From the NCBI GenBank assembly GCA_965238005.1, contig OZ250165.1, forward strand, positions 2,496,001 to 2,560,000: 64,000 bases of DNA, read 5' to 3'. Within the stretch, counting starts at the first letter, position 1; every line of letters starts with the position of its first letter. The stretch is from Longimicrobiales bacterium (GTDB taxonomy: Bacteria; Gemmatimonadota; Gemmatimonadetes; Longimicrobiales; Gaopeijiaceae). Positions 29,105 through 35,674 of the stretch are shown piece after piece. The translations under genes and the position numbers were made by a program. The notes below the pieces were generated by a model, which saw only the letters and a program-made list of their open reading frames with translations, was not told the DNA's origin and searched no databases.

Positions 29105-29264
29105 AACACCCGAACGTCCGTTACTATGCCTTCCACTGCAAGGTCTTCCGGGCGGAACGAACCAGGATCGCAGTCGATAAGAAAAAGGTAAAGCAGAAGC
29201 TAAGCCGCCGCGCCGAATCACGGCAAACGGTTGTTTGTAAATCACTCATGTGGCAGTGCCAATC

Positions 29265-29281
29265 TTGGCACGGACCTTGTC
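29265..29281 (+). promoter_or_regulatory. sigma54 (-24/-12)-like promoter
   Basis: TTGGCACGGACCTTGTC vs consensus YTGGCACGRNNNTTGCW; the -12 GC is GT here. Confidence 0.55.
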
Positions 29282-29291
29282 ATAGAAACGG

Positions 29292-29450
29292 ACGTCGGAC
29301 GGAGGAGACGAAGTCCGACCGGAAAACGGCGAATGTGATGATGATGGGGGGACAGTTGAGGAGCCTGGGTGGATGATGTGGGGATGATGTGAATTGGCTC
29401 GACGCCGTAAAAAGCTCGGCAGGGATCGCCCCCCTGCCGAGCTTTTTTTT
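29292..29450 (+). ncRNA. Candidate ~160-nt small RNA
   Basis: Lies between the sigma54-like promoter and a strong intrinsic terminator; 5' hairpin GTCGGAC/GTCCGAC; repeated GGATGATGTG; no credible ORF. Confidence 0.5.
29409..29450 (+). terminator. Rho-independent terminator (potentially bidirectional)
   Basis: AAAAA-GCTCGGCAGGG-loop-CCCTGCCGAGC-T8. Confidence 0.85.
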
Positions 29451-29528
29451 GCACCCCTCCGAAGGATGGGGTAGTCTCCCACCACCACCCATGCCCTCAT
29501 TCCCATAGACTCCACTCCGACGCCGCGC

Positions 29529-30536
29529 GTGAGCCCCGCCCTCGTCGCGCCCGACACCGGGCCCCCGGAGTCGACTCCCTCCCCGACTCTCGTCGTGCTG
29601 GCAGCCGGCCTGTCCACCCGGTATGGGGCCGTGAAGCCACTCGCGTCCGTCGGCCCGCAAGGAGAAGCCCTCATCGACTACGCCCTCTACGATGCCGCCT
29701 GCTCGGGATACGGTGACGCGATCCTGGTGGTGCGCCGGGAGATCGAGGCCGAGGTGTCACTGCATGTCGAGAAGCTCACCGGGGGCTCCTGGCCCTGCCG
29801 CTTCGTTTGCCAGCGCATGGACGACCTCCCCGACGGTGTTGCATTCGCTGGAGGCCGTGCGAAGCCCTGGGGAACCGGCCACGCGGTTTGGACCGCACGG
29901 TATGCCGTCCGGGGATCCTTCGCCGTGGTGAACGCAGACGACCTCTACGGGCGGGCCGCCCTACAGGCGCTGGCAGAGCATCTGCTTGTCGGGGGTGCCC
30001 GGGAGAACCGAGGACCGCAAGACTATGTGGCCATCACGTATCGGCTGGCCGACACCCTCTCCGACACCGCTCGGGTCTCGAGGGCCATCCTCAAGGTCGA
30101 CGCCGACCATCTGGTCCGGGAGATCCGTGAGGTGCTTCGGGTCCACCGTACATCGGCGGGGATCGTCGGTGAGACCCCCGACGGCGTGGTGCTGTCCTTC
30201 TCCGGCGATGAGCCGTCCTCCATGGGCATCTGGGGCTTCAAGCCCACCCTGTTTCCGCTTCTCGAGGACCGCCTCCGCTCCTTCCTCGGACGGCCCGGCG
30301 CCGATGACTCCGCGGAGTTCTACCTGAGCGACACGCTGAACGGGCTCATCGCTTCTGGAGACGCCCGGATCCGTGCGGTGGAGTCCGGTGCATCGGGATT
30401 CGGCGTGACGTTTCCCGACGATCGGTCGGAGGTTCGAGCCCGCATCGATAGGCTCGTTGCCGAGGGTGCTTATCCGGCGGATCTTCGGAGCACATTTCGA
30501 GCGTTGACGAACCCGGGTGGACCTTCAGGAACGTAG
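29529..30536 (+). CDS. Sugar-phosphate nucleotidyltransferase family protein
   Basis: LVVLAAGLSTRYG, KPWGTGHAV, VVNADDLYG, EFYL. Confidence 0.85.
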   Translation: MSPALVAPDTGPPESTPSPTLVVLAAGLSTRYGAVKPLASVGPQGEALIDYALYDAACSGYGDAILVVRREIEAEVSLHVEKLTGGSWPCRFVCQRMDDLPDGVAFAGGRAKPWGTGHAVWTARYAVRGSFAVVNADDLYGRAALQALAEHLLVGGARENRGPQDYVAITYRLADTLSDTARVSRAILKVDADHLVREIREVLRVHRTSAGIVGETPDGVVLSFSGDEPSSMGIWGFKPTLFPLLEDRLRSFLGRPGADDSAEFYLSDTLNGLIASGDARIRAVESGASGFGVTFPDDRSEVRARIDRLVAEGAYPADLRSTFRALTNPGGPSGT

Positions 30537-30541
30537 CCCTG

Positions 30542-32329
30542 ATGCAGCTTTCGATACTGGACTGGTGGGTCCTGGCCCTCTACGGTGTGACAGCCCTCTC
30601 CGTGGGGCTGGCGTTCGCCCGCCGAGCCGGACGCGGCACCGAAGAATACTTCCTCGCCGGCCGGTCCATGCCGTGGTGGCTTCTCGGGACCTCCATGGTG
30701 GCCACGACATTCTCGACAGACACGCCCAACCTCGTCACCGACCTCGTGCGCACGGGGGGAGTCAGCCAGAACTGGATCTGGTGGGCCTTCCTGATCACCG
30801 GGATGTGCACGGTGTTTTTCTACGCCAAGCTGTGGCGGCGCTCGGGCGTCCTCACCGACATCGGGTTCTACGAGCTCCGCTATGCCGGGCGGCCCGCCGC
30901 CTTCCTCCGGGGGTTCCGCGCCATCTACCTGGGCGTGTTCTTCAACGTCATGATCATGGCCACGGTGACCCTGGCGGCCATCAAGATCGGCAGTGTGCTC
31001 CTGGGGGCGGACAAGTACACGGTAGTGCTGATCGCCGGGACGGCGACGGTCCTCTACTCGGCCACTTCCGGGCTTTGGGGGGTCCTGGTCACGGACCTGC
31101 TGCTCTTCTCGATCTCCATGATCGGCGCCGTGGCTGCGGCGTTCTACGCGCTACGACTCCCCGAGGTGGGTGGGCTCTCCGGCCTCATTTCCAACCCGGC
31201 CGTCGCCGGCAAGCTGTCCTTCCTCCCGGACTTCTCGGATCCCTCCACCGCAGCAGCAGTCTTCATCGTGCCCATCGCCGTTCAGTGGTGGAGTACCTGG
31301 TACCCCGGTGCGGAGCCCGGTGGCGGGGGTTATTCCGCCCAACGCATGCTCGCGGCCAAAGACGAGAAGCACGCCATGCAGGCCACGCTCTGGTTCAACC
31401 TGGCCCATTACGCCCTGAGACCGTGGCCCTGGATCCTGGTGGCCCTGGCTTCGCTCATCGTCTACCCGACCCTCGGCGACCTTCAGGCGGCCTTCCCAAA
31501 CGTGGATCCGTCGGTCATCCGAAATGACCTCGCCTATCCCGCCATGCTGGTCTTCTTGCCTCACGGGCTCCTGGGTCTTGTGGTGGCCTCGCTGGCCGCC
31601 GCCTACATGTCCACGATAAGCACCCACCTCAACTGGGGGGCGTCGTACATCGTAGACGACGTATACCGCCGCTTCGTGGCCCCGGACCGTGAGGAGAAGG
31701 ACTACGTTCGCGTGGCGAGGCTCTCCACCGTCGGACTGATCATCCTCTCGTCCTTCGTAGCGCTGCAGCTAGAGAACGCCATGCAGGCCTTCCAGATCCT
31801 CCTGCAGATCGGAGCCGGAACAGGCCTCGTGTTCCTCCTCCGTTGGTTCTGGTGGCGGGTGAACACCTGGAGTGAGATCTCCGCCATGGTGATTTCGTTC
31901 CTGGTCGCGCTCTACTTCGCGTTCGTGCACACGCGACTGGGGTTCGAGGCCTGGAACCCTTCGACTACCCTGGTAGTGGGCGTGGCGATCACCACGGTCG
32001 GGTGGCTGGCCGTTACGTTCATGACGCCCCCGGTTGAAGCCGAGACCCTGCGCGCCTTCCACCGGAGCATCCGTCCCCTTGGCCGGGGCTGGGACGCCGT
32101 CGTTGGAGATGGCGCATCCGCTGACGAAGCCCCATCTGGGGCGGAGGGAGAGCTCACCGCCGGTCTCCTCTCGTGGTTCCTGGGGTGCACCATGGTGTAC
32201 GGCGCCTTGTTCGGAACCGGCTTCCTGCTCTACGGGCAGCTTGTGGCGGGAGCCTTGGGGCTGATCGTTGCGACCGTCGCGGGCTGGGGAGTCTTCAGGA
32301 TCCTCCCGCGGGTGGGCTTCCTCACGTAG
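30542..32329 (+). CDS. Sodium:solute symporter family protein
   Basis: EYFLAGRSMPWW, AAYMSTISTHLNWGAS, many transmembrane helices. Confidence 0.9.
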   Translation: MQLSILDWWVLALYGVTALSVGLAFARRAGRGTEEYFLAGRSMPWWLLGTSMVATTFSTDTPNLVTDLVRTGGVSQNWIWWAFLITGMCTVFFYAKLWRRSGVLTDIGFYELRYAGRPAAFLRGFRAIYLGVFFNVMIMATVTLAAIKIGSVLLGADKYTVVLIAGTATVLYSATSGLWGVLVTDLLLFSISMIGAVAAAFYALRLPEVGGLSGLISNPAVAGKLSFLPDFSDPSTAAAVFIVPIAVQWWSTWYPGAEPGGGGYSAQRMLAAKDEKHAMQATLWFNLAHYALRPWPWILVALASLIVYPTLGDLQAAFPNVDPSVIRNDLAYPAMLVFLPHGLLGLVVASLAAAYMSTISTHLNWGASYIVDDVYRRFVAPDREEKDYVRVARLSTVGLIILSSFVALQLENAMQAFQILLQIGAGTGLVFLLRWFWWRVNTWSEISAMVISFLVALYFAFVHTRLGFEAWNPSTTLVVGVAITTVGWLAVTFMTPPVEAETLRAFHRSIRPLGRGWDAVVGDGASADEAPSGAEGELTAGLLSWFLGCTMVYGALFGTGFLLYGQLVAGALGLIVATVAGWGVFRILPRVGFLT

Positions 32330-32360
32330 CCTATCCGAAGGTAGTCCCATCGAGAGGTAG

Positions 32361-33806
32361 GTCGAGTAGCCCGGGCGGTTGCCCGCCCGGGCCCTCTCAG
32401 ATCCGAGCAAGGAGATTTCCACCACTCGGCTCCTCCGTTGAGGAGTCTCACGGAGCCCTGACCCAGACTTGTACACGTTGCCGAACATCGGCGAGATGAT
32501 CGACCCCTGCGCGGAACCCTCGCCCGGCTTGCTGAACTCTTCGCCGTCGAGGACGCCCACGTGAAGACATTTGCCGAGCAGCCGCAGGAGCGGCGTGTCG
32601 GCCACCCGGATCTGGAGCAGCTCCAACAGCTTCTTGCGGTCGATGCTGTCGAAGAAACGCCTGGATGTCGGCCTCCAGGACCACCGCGATCCCTTCCCAG
32701 GACACCATCCGGTTGATGGCTCGAAGCGCGTCGTGCGCACTGCGATCTGGCCGGAACCCGTATGAGCATTCCAGGAAGTCCTGTTCGTAGACTGCCTCCA
32801 GGACCTCATGCAGCGCGCCCTGCACAATCTTGTCCTCCAGATTGGAGATACCGATCGGCCGCGTCTTACCGTTCCCCTTCGGGATGTACACACGTCGGAT
32901 CGGCTGATGTCGGTACCGCATCGATCTCAGCCGCTCGTGCAGCCCCCGGCGGTTCCCCTCCAGATGCCGCCCGTACTCCTCCTTCGTGATGCCCTCGACC
33001 CCGACCGCCGCGTTCTTGCGGATCCGGCCGTAGGCCCGTCGTAGGCCCGTCCCAGCGCCGCCTCGTCCACGAGGTGCGCCAACGAGTTGAATCTGGCGTC
33101 CGGGTCTCGCCTCGCTCTCTCCGCTACCTTCAGGAGTCCCGGGGACATGGGGGACCCTTGGTCTGTGCTCAAGGCCATGTTTCCCTCCTGAAGTTCTGCC
33201 TCAACACGGGCCGCCTTTGCTCGGCTGGGTCCGGGTGCCATCATCCGTTCCCCAGCGTCTTCGCTCCTAAGCGGCCCTCCGACTCCCCTGCCGCATTGGC
33301 ACGCCTCCGGTTTGCCCTCGGTCGTGCCTTACCGGTTGAGCAAGCGTCGCTTCTGTGCCTGGTGGCGTCGCCGCCACGGGGCCGGCCACCGGACCGCTTG
33401 CCGCCGACGGCGCGTCGGAGAGGGTCACCGGTTCTCCGTTGCCCGGATCCTCCAACCGGACGGTCAGGGGCCTCCCAGGTTACTGGGCCGTCCTCTTTGA
33501 GCGTGCCGCCCGCCACCCACCCCGCCGGGTCTCCTCGTCGGCTGGCCTTTAGCGCCTTCGGGAGTACTGCTTTCCAGGATGGGAAACCCTTGAGCACCCG
33601 GGATTAAGCTGTTTCGGGGCTGACACACGCGGCCCACCCACTCGCCTGACTACGCATCAACCGCCTCCTCACGAAGACGGCTGCAAGCCTGGCTACCGGT
33701 CTGCCGGCTACGCTTTGACCGGGTGGGGCTCGCACCCACAGGACGACTCATCCGAGTTTCGGTCTACATCCTGACCTCCTCCCAGACCAGCAGGGCCTGG
33801 TCGCTT
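32361..33806 (-). mobile_element. Group II intron, internally deleted
   Basis: Domain V GAGCCGAGTGGTGGAAATCTCCTTGCTCGGATC, domain VI hairpin ending CTACTCGAC at 32361, RT remnant, 5' region beginning AAGCGACCAGG near 33806 (boundary inferred). Confidence 0.85.
32468..33178 (-). pseudogene. ltrA: Group II intron reverse transcriptase/maturase, frameshifted and truncated
   Basis: RFNSLAHL, RRVYIPKGNGKTRPIGI, SYGFRP, EADI..FFDSID, QGSIISP..NVY; 11-bp duplication at 33030-33051, +1 shift near 32656, no YADD or maturase domain. Confidence 0.88.
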
Positions 33807-34072
33807 CTCCCATCCAGCCATGGACGGATTCTGAGCCTCATGATCGTCGAGATCCGGGACTCCCTGTAGAACGCACCTGACGACGCCTGGCATTCGGTCT
33901 GCCCGGCGACCTCGACCCCGGGACACTTCCGGCGTCCCCCACCCCCTCCGCGGCCCGCCCACAAGCCAGCCAGGGCCTCGAGAAACCCCCTCTTATCTTT
34001 CAAGCAAGCACGCCGAACACTCCTGGCATCCCAAACCACCGCCGCATGCTAACCCGTTCCAAGGAGCTTCCC

Positions 34073-35674
34073 ATGGTCCGCCCCGCTGTCGCTGCCGTCA
34101 CTCCCAGCGATTCCGGCCCCACGCTCGCCGTCGTGCCTTCCTGCGACTCCGGCCCCACGCTCGCCGTCGTAGCCGGCGCGTCAACCCAGAACCTCGAGCG
34201 CCTGGGCGACGAGATCGCCGAGCTGGCCGCACACCTGGATGCGGCCACCTACCGCCTCCTGGCGCTAATCCGTGAGTTCGACGCGAAAGAGGGGTGGCGC
34301 TCGGGATTCCGGACGTGCGCCCACTGGCTCAGCTGGCGTACCGGGATCGACATGGGAGCTGCCCGCGAGAAGGTGAGGGTGGCCCGGGCCTTGGAGCATC
34401 TACCCCTGCTGAGCGAAGAGATGCGGCTTGGAGAGCTCTCCTACTCGAAGGCCCGAGCTCTCACGCGCGTCGCCACGGCGGATAACGAAGAGGAGTTGAT
34501 GGGCTTCGCCCAGCACGCAACGGCATCGCATGTGGAAACACTCGTGAGGACGTGGCGCCGTGTGGACCGCTTGGAGGAGCAATGCCAGGAGCGGGAGCGG
34601 CATCGGTCGCGCTTCCTCACTGTCCGTCCCGATGTGGACGGCATGTACGTTGTCCGGGGACGGCTGGATCCCGAGGTCGGTGCGCTGTTGACGAAGGCCC
34701 TCGAAGCTGCGGGGGATGAACTCTACCGCAGGGCTGCGGAGGATGAAGTCTACCGGAGGGCTGCGGAGGATGACCCCGTGGGCGATCCCCAGATCACCGG
34801 GGATGGGGTGGCCGCGGACACGGTGGAAGGGTCCGTGGCAGCGGAGGTCCGATCTGAGGTTCGATCTGAGGTCCGATCTGAGGAGACCACGCCGGGGCAG
34901 CGGCGGGCGGACGCGATCGGCCTTCTCGCCGAGTGTGCGCTGCAGGGCGGATTGGTGGAGGCGGGCGGGGGGCGTGCCGCCGGCGAGTGCGGCGACGGCA
35001 AGCGCAGCGACGGACGGGCTGCAGCCACGGTGAGCCGGGCAGACCGTTTTCAGGTGGTTCTTCACGTGGATGCCGAGGCGCTCGCCGATTCCGAGACCCT
35101 CGTGGACGGCTCCGTGGACGGCTCCGTGGCGTATGAATCCGAGCTGGAGGACGGCGTTCGCGTTTCCGCGGAGACGTCGAGGCGTCTGGCATGCGACGCG
35201 AGCCGTGTCGTCATGACTCACGGCACCGATGGATCGGTGCTCGATGTCGGAAGGAAGACGCGAACGGTGCCACCCGCCATTCGGAGGGCGCTCGACCACA
35301 GGGACAGGGGATGCCGTTTCCCAGGCTGTGGACTCAGGTTCTGCGACGCCCATCACATCGAACACTGGGCCGACGGTGGAGAGACCAGGCTGGACGGCCT
35401 CGTGCTTTTGTGCCGTCTACATCACCGGGCGGTGCACGAGGAGGGATTCGGGGTGGCCTTCACGGACGACGGCCGGATCCACTTCCGTTGGCCTGACGGG
35501 CGGGCATTCCCCGACGCTCCCCAGGCGCCGCGGCTGACAGGGGATCCGGTCACGGCTCTCGAAAGGAAGCACGAGAGGATGGAGCTCGGTATCGATCCCG
35601 GGACACCGACTAGCCTGTGGCAAGGTGAGTCCTTCGACCTGGGCCTGGCGATCCAGATGTTCCGAAATGCGTGA
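34073..35674 (+). CDS. DUF222-domain HNH endonuclease (13E12-repeat-like)
   Basis: AREKVRVARAL, GELSYSKARAL, RRLACDA, RRALDHRDRGCRFPGC...CDAHHIEHWADGGET...LLCRLHHRAVH; AAGGAG RBS. Confidence 0.88.
   Translation: MVRPAVAAVTPSDSGPTLAVVPSCDSGPTLAVVAGASTQNLERLGDEIAELAAHLDAATYRLLALIREFDAKEGWRSGFRTCAHWLSWRTGIDMGAAREKVRVARALEHLPLLSEEMRLGELSYSKARALTRVATADNEEELMGFAQHATASHVETLVRTWRRVDRLEEQCQERERHRSRFLTVRPDVDGMYVVRGRLDPEVGALLTKALEAAGDELYRRAAEDEVYRRAAEDDPVGDPQITGDGVAADTVEGSVAAEVRSEVRSEVRSEETTPGQRRADAIGLLAECALQGGLVEAGGGRAAGECGDGKRSDGRAAATVSRADRFQVVLHVDAEALADSETLVDGSVDGSVAYESELEDGVRVSAETSRRLACDASRVVMTHGTDGSVLDVGRKTRTVPPAIRRALDHRDRGCRFPGCGLRFCDAHHIEHWADGGETRLDGLVLLCRLHHRAVHEEGFGVAFTDDGRIHFRWPDGRAFPDAPQAPRLTGDPVTALERKHERMELGIDPGTPTSLWQGESFDLGLAIQMFRNA

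Follow-up and report, generated by a model that had tools for sequence, protein, structure and literature searches.

A predicted sigma54-dependent small-RNA family of Longimicrobiales and its candidate envelope regulon

The window, by which we mean the whole 64,000-nt stretch of a Longimicrobiales genome (phylum Gemmatimonadota) that was analysed, carries one member of a real and conserved family of predicted small RNAs of this order that is absent from Rfam 15. Sigma54-dependent small RNAs are already known as a class (e.g., GlmY and Pxr, and further CrcZ and Qrr), and it is the family that is new. Its member in the window has a -24/-12 box of the sigma54 type followed by a hairpin at the 5' end, by repeats of GAUGAUGUG and by a strong terminator, an arrangement noticed in a preliminary description of the sequence and confirmed here.

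The promoter (29265-29280, forward strand) is conserved in relatives and scores 18.2 against a matrix derived from 65 pattern matches in other genomes. Its -12 element is the variant TTGT, common to all intact members of the RNA family, and the positions of GG (29267-29268) and of GT rather than GC (29279-29280) put +1 at 29292, where the preliminary description had also placed it. The predicted small RNA, of ~157-159 nt (29292-29450, +) with its start placed by promoter spacing, begins with a 7-bp hairpin with a purine-rich loop (SL1, 29294-29319, +; arms 29294-29300 and 29313-29319), which is missing in the short form of the family found in genus g15. A single-stranded GAY-repeat and then a G-run (29333-29353, +) are common to this RNA and those of genomes G061, G146, G029 and G105, and folding predicts a two-stem domain thereafter (29352-29408, +), in which 29352-29356 pair with 29404-29408 and 29361-29365 with 29396-29400. 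Copies of GGATGATGTG start at 29371 and 29382 and a variant at 29333, as had been reported; the 30-nt loop of the two-stem domain carries both GGAUGAUGUG copies, and G002 has three. The intrinsic terminator (29409-29450, +) consists of an 11-bp GC stem (29414-29424 with 29432-29442), an A5 extension and a T8 tract (29443-29450). It was not called by a consensus scanner and is shown instead by folding and conservation, the sequence of its 5' arm being conserved across subfamilies.

Of the 18 genomic occurrences of the repeat's 10-mer, only the pair found here is spaced within 30 nt. The G-over-C skew of the RNA body is matched by 96 of 483,906 genome windows, and the RNA folds with z = -2.47 (4 of 200 shuffles equally stable), a value to which the terminator contributes much. 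Sequence searches found no second copy of the RNA in its own genome, and plasmid and phage collections gave no match to it. At the gathering threshold, Rfam matches in the whole window were confined to two, one tRNA and one group II intron domain; at E<=10 the element itself drew 12 hits, all sub-threshold and mostly over the terminator, and eight homologue loci yielded tRNAs and sub-threshold hits and nothing else. With no Rfam match, rpoN present in the genome, and both promoter and terminator conserved, the earlier proposal of a self-contained sigma54-type RNA gene of ~157-159 nt from an unrecognised family stands.

DNA searches recovered the element in G002, from the same genus (g1; 87%), and in G061, G118 and G146 (genus g53); in G002, G061 and G146 none of the parts, from enhancer through promoter and stems to terminator, has been lost, and pairwise matches show 75-87% identity. 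A promoter-plus-terminator pattern, present in 8 of 301 family genomes (reversed control, 0), added all four g15 genomes, in which the RNA is 110 nt long and occupies a different locus. Five g1/g53 RNAs, stripped of their promoters, were used to build a covariance model, which recognised all four g15 RNAs as well as a metagenome copy (33-36 bits, against at most 12.7 bits for 23 control loci) and aligned the terminator arm and the UGAUGUG core of the loop between the g1/g53 and g15 RNAs. Four more genomes, G029 (g28), G010 (g9), G105 (g97) and G273 (g76), reached just 7-12 bits with this model. G029 is syntenic and has the GAY-repeat, and the other three have the enhancer, the promoter variant, a G-rich body and a terminator in common with the family and are probably members of it. 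Homologues were thus reached in three genera through RNA sequence or the covariance model, in a fourth through synteny and in three more through architecture only.

The stems are paired in 120 of 120 cells in g15, against 32-58% for slid registers, and in 94% of cells in g1/g53, against 30-45%. All four g15 genomes and the metagenome copy are intact, and each change in their stems preserves pairing. SL1 shows three both-sided changes in G029 (in a hand-set register) and two breaks in the lesioned G118. Covariation did not rise above a column-shuffle control (172 of 500 in g15, 327 of 500 in g1/g53) at this small number of sequences. The comparison with relatives proposed in the preliminary description therefore produced homologues and paired stems, and no covariation above that control.

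Carriers of the RNA are few and patchy. Of 291 family genomes, 14 contain the TTGT variant together with the enhancer pattern described below (control, 0), the match being the RNA in 11 of them. Regions upstream of homologues of the neighbouring nucleotidyltransferase gene (30 + 33 loci) hold the RNA in g1 and g53 only. Terminator-anchored patterns, the source of the G029 copy, were noisy: 17 of 351 genomes matched one of them (four being the RNA) and 30 of 301 another (six being the RNA), and the RNA made up one of 18 matches in a metagenome scan. A literature search, mostly confined to papers outside subscription, found nothing on small RNAs, the enhancer motif or the regulon in Gemmatimonadota.

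Relatives have between one and three GTCC-N7/8-GGACA palindromes, of which the best lies 75-96 bp upstream of the -24 box, and this enhancer was missed in the preliminary description, as was its loss from the copy in the window. Enhancer scores of 12.5-19.3 were obtained in 8 of 8 relatives scored; they are partly circular, since the matrix was made from matches to a pattern taken from the same loci. IHF may bind in an AT-richer stretch that separates enhancer and promoter, the match being loose. Across the order, 59 of 301 genomes contain the palindrome together with a sigma54 box (64 matches), whereas the reversed pattern matched 8 times, in 6 genomes. We read 63 of the 64: two are the RNA, and most others precede genes with signal-peptide-like starts, with the palindrome ~70-85 bp upstream of the -24 box (e.g., L078-L106, L143-L175 and L294-L297, and C1:1239835 (-) and C1:2109541 (+) in the window's own genome). 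The regulon starts so listed number 57, a few of them in the wrong frame. Four of six regulon proteins tested match envelope families (outer-membrane beta-barrel, glycine-zipper/OmpA, TonB C-terminal and Bor), and Asp/Arg-repeat exported proteins are also included. Since the enhancer motif also lies ahead of genes for exported proteins, we infer that the RNA would be the non-coding arm of an envelope programme; RybB and MicA are non-coding arms of this kind in the sigmaE envelope regulon.

Two other promoters in the window's genome keep the enhancer motif (scores 19.2 and 11.7), so the activator probably survives there. That genome encodes about ten sigma54 activators, none of which could be linked to the motif as its cognate activator, and no activator gene adjoins the RNA. 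The palindrome also appears in tandem, with a sigma54 box, before two short ORFs in Myxococcota/Deltaproteobacteria records, and also in Bacteroidales records (L109, L118, L121, L125, L199-L202 and L209; L107 and L124), an occurrence that suggests a widespread activator family. As a separate observation, a protein of 59 aa that is conserved, hydrophobic at its N-terminus and without a match in Pfam is encoded behind a sigma54 promoter in L126-L130, L132, L133 (genus g71), L135 and L084. Its start codon is ATT in g71 and in L084, and G081 has ATG in the same place with the same ribosome-binding site.

Among the known RNAs that come closest is GlmY of Enterobacteriaceae, with upstream sites that the palindrome resembles: its sigma54 promoter is preceded by TGTC-N10-GACA sites for the activator GlrR, according to the part of that report used here (PMC3045617). 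Like the RNA described here, GlmY is a stand-alone small RNA with several upstream TGTC-spacer-GACA sites, and it is activated by GlrR/QseF and acts as a decoy with a link to the envelope, as is proposed here likewise (PMC3045617 and PMC13501541, both in excerpt). The GlrR spacer is N10, while here it is 9 or 10; the GlmY/GlmZ pair is further set apart by the lack of an Rfam match, by RapZ, which was not found in the window's genome, and by the missing adjacent activator gene. Pxr of myxobacteria similarly has a predicted sigma54 promoter, an upstream enhancer region, a stem-loop RNA and an Hfq-less host, and differs in adjoining its activator gene, pxrR, as far as the available portion of PMC5684412 describes it; the RNA here has neither a pxrR nor a pxrK neighbour, no Rfam match to Pxr, and repeated G-rich motifs.

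What the RNA might do was approached through its motifs, counted in seven RNAs, each of a different genus, against 1000 dinucleotide shuffles, the patterns having been chosen after inspection of the sequences. GAYG (41 vs. 30.7 in shuffles; 1 of 1000), GAYGAYG (11 vs. 2.7; 0 of 1000) and GGAYG (20 vs. 12.4; 7 of 1000) are enriched, and GGA (41 vs. 37.9) and ANGGA (5 vs. 7.8) are not. Unpaired bases of the RNAs are 41-68% G and 0-16% C, the low C content being in part a consequence of the excess of G. Lengths across the family range from 97 to 239 nt, and the number of repeats varies by tandem duplication. Loops that are G-rich, C-poor and unpaired, GAYG repeats, and varying copy number and length together constitute the build of a titrating RNA. 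Neither the two-stem domain that holds both 10-mers nor the lack of GGA enrichment could be seen in the preliminary description.

We therefore favour, tentatively and at somewhat less than even confidence, a titrating RNA whose partner would be an RNA or a protein. In intact relatives, an NtrC-type enhancer-binding protein would bind the tandem GTCC-N7/8-GGACA sites ~75-100 bp upstream and activate sigma54 polymerase, so that the stand-alone RNA is made, and the same activator input would also drive genes for exported and outer-membrane proteins. Between its short stems the RNA would expose unpaired, G-rich and C-poor stretches in which GAYG/UGAUGUG repeats recur in varying number. A partner that recognises these motifs would be bound in several copies; it would be an RNA-binding protein or, as for RosA and RsaI, a C-rich RNA, and its titration would set the partner's own targets free. 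RosA of Bacillus and RsaI of Staphylococcus are stand-alone G-rich sponges of C-rich small RNAs with several unpaired G-rich regions, a feature present here too, and, in the portion of PMC8216469 drawn on, they are CcpA-controlled RNAs of Firmicutes; there is no sequence match to them, and five exact patterns made no complementary C-rich small RNA evident in the window's genome. The literature consulted also covered RbpB/FopS (PMC11697453). As for a protein partner, Hfq/LSm, RRM, KhpA/B, ProQ and RapZ were not found in this genome (one contig, 95.85% complete), and cold-shock proteins, with five full domains and one fragment, were the sole RNA-binding family found among those searched. A more specific version, in which the RNA would be a decoy for an undescribed class of translational regulator and its GAYG/UGAUGUG motifs would mimic the ribosome-binding regions of envelope mRNAs, appears unlikely.

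The main rival to titration is base pairing with multiple targets in the manner of GcvB, which we regard as possible, if doubtful. The UGAUGUG loop seeds would anneal to C/A-rich sequences immediately ahead of ribosome-binding sites and repress envelope or transporter mRNAs without Hfq. The conserved core is indeed a G/U-rich loop sequence, and GcvB acts through an unstructured GU-rich region on CA-rich leader elements (PMC3879156, as far as the excerpt goes). In the window's genome, the complementary CACATCA lies at -42 to -12 of 4 of 240 predicted signal-peptide genes and at none further upstream (mean of 0.4 for letter permutations), and several of the best duplexes fall just upstream of the Shine-Dalgarno sequence. 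Against this, duplex energies near starts are no better than those further upstream or with shuffled seeds (-21.6 vs. -21.3; -24.3 vs. -25.2), and CACATC stands before a ribosome-binding site in 11.4 per 1000 occurrences, compared with a permutation median of 10.2. For the target-site enrichment expected of a GcvB-like RNA, the k-mer counts give a weak hint and the duplex energies no signal; the counts come from 27 k-mer/set tests on a crude gene set of 946 starts. GcvB uses Hfq, and neither Hfq nor ProQ was found in the window's genome, nor was there an Rfam match to GcvB.

The copy of the RNA gene in the window (genome G000) is itself damaged. Alignment shows that 253 bp, which hold the enhancer in G002, are missing here, homology to G002 ending at a junction at 29199-29203, and the best enhancer score in this copy is -4.6; as this score goes back to a matrix made from the motif itself, independent evidence for the loss comes from the alignment. 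The junction borders a ~28-kb island (1225-29198) containing an integrase-core transposase, a TonB-dependent receptor and many peptidases and amidohydrolases, at whose other end lies tRNA-Leu(CAA) (1126-1210, -), identified by Rfam match and, from the synteny of relatives, as the ancestral upstream neighbour. This tRNA gene is within ~350 bp of the promoter in G002, G061, G146, G118 and G029 and 28 kb away here. Sigma54 promoters require a bound activator, and with the enhancer missing, deleted at the island edge, the window's copy is probably no longer induced. Such a requirement has been shown for the sigma54 promoter of glmY (PMC3045617, in part). Two side observations concern tRNA genes: in G001 a 25-bp duplicate of the 5' end of tRNA-Leu marks the far edge of the island, and G000 has two tRNA arrays of 17 genes each (C1:1035994-1037821 and C1:4451264-4453598).

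Three further syntenic copies are damaged, each differently: G001 has kept the enhancer and lost promoter and RNA, G118 has lost the enhancer and the -24 box, and G029 is missing its 3' domain, although a fault in the assembly could account for this. With four of seven syntenic copies damaged (G000, G001, G118 and G029), the RNA is dispensable in that lineage. These lesions and the patchy distribution would fit an ancestral RNA family now in decay, with repeats that arose by slippage in G-rich sequence and with no present role in g1/g53. We consider such a history quite improbable, given that G002, G061 and G146 keep all parts at the identities stated above and that the g15 and metagenome copies are intact, with stem changes that preserve pairs.

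A coding role, either as a very short peptide or through ribosome loading on the Shine-Dalgarno/AUG-like repeats, is highly improbable. It would draw on the GAYGAUG sequence, which puts an AUG behind a purine-rich stretch in most members, and on GACG-AUG at 5 of 57 regulon starts, compared with 20 of 1453 own-genome starts, a comparison that spans different genomes and related genes. The ATG- or GTG-started frames of 3-45 aa, however, differ between homologues and reveal no conserved peptide, in line with the original remark that the unit encodes no credible protein: the candidate peptides are 4-17 aa long, differ in sequence and show frameshifts between close relatives, and G010 is without any frame of 3-45 aa.

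The genes downstream, a nucleotidyltransferase-like gene and a sodium:solute symporter (29529-32329, +), are syntenic neighbours outside the RNA unit and appear to have their own promoter beyond the terminator. A sigma70-like sequence, TTGCAC-N17-TAGTCT (29449-29477, +), is the candidate, proposed on the basis of conservation: G002, G061, G146, G118 and also G001, where the RNA has been lost, preserve its -10 box and the 17-bp distance while the spacer itself varies, though the consensus scanner did not call it. This arrangement suggests that the RNA stands alone and counts against a 5' leader or attenuator of the nucleotidyltransferase/symporter operon, which we consider extremely improbable, even if promoter and terminator lie 80 bp ahead of the same-strand operon in g1, g53 and g28. 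Members in g15, g9, g76 and g97 instead have other neighbours (paaX, DUF411, a helicase and a gene beside DUF72), and Rfam contained no riboswitch match at threshold. The DUF411 gene follows the RNA in G163 (g15; Pfam; L073:828-1295), and G010 (g9) has a similar protein (L140:265-725); this shared neighbour could possibly reflect older synteny or a metal-stress link. Elsewhere in this part of the window, the group II intron domain (RF02005, 33510-33732) lies just past the symporter within 31769-33732 (-), together with what looks like a fragmented reverse-transcriptase-like gene, a label taken from the translation of a region whose scanned piece had no Pfam match; a DUF222/HNH gene occupies 34046-35674 (+).

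Finally, a CsrA/RsmA sponge, an analogy first drawn from the several GGA triplets, of which we count nine within the RNA, some in the SL1 loop, is largely refuted and retains next to no probability: CsrA was found in 0 of 6 genomes (the window's own and 5 of 5 carriers, 90-96% complete; the search control was positive in 3 of 14 reference genomes), neither GGA nor ANGGA shows enrichment, and there is no Rfam match. CsrB/RsmZ sponges present GGA in small hairpin loops, and CrcZ is under sigma54 control. Short motifs repeated in variable number and titrating a protein are what the RNA would have in common with both (PMC13501541, in excerpt); its motif, unlike theirs, is GAYG/UGAUGUG in large loops, with no CA motifs. 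The genome check suggested earlier thus returned rpoN and neither csrA nor hfq. The CrcZ analogy fails because Hfq was not found, and this, together with the absence of CA/A-rich repeats and of an Rfam match, counts against identity with CrcZ.

For the biology of the order, the copy in the window is itself of lower value, having probably lost its coupling to the activator. The lesions, four independent ones that affect the enhancer only, promoter and RNA, enhancer and -24 box, or the 3' domain, amount to natural mutants, and through the family a sigma54 enhancer motif spread across the order and a candidate envelope regulon come to light. With 100-170 nt and a conserved loop motif, the RNAs also provide a defined bait for post-transcriptional control that operates without the usual RNA chaperones. 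Were they indeed decoys for a translational regulator, a single sigma54 activator would switch on envelope genes together with an RNA that frees their translation, and Longimicrobiales would have a CsrB-like circuit assembled from unrelated parts where Hfq, CsrA, ProQ, RRM and KhpA/B were not found.
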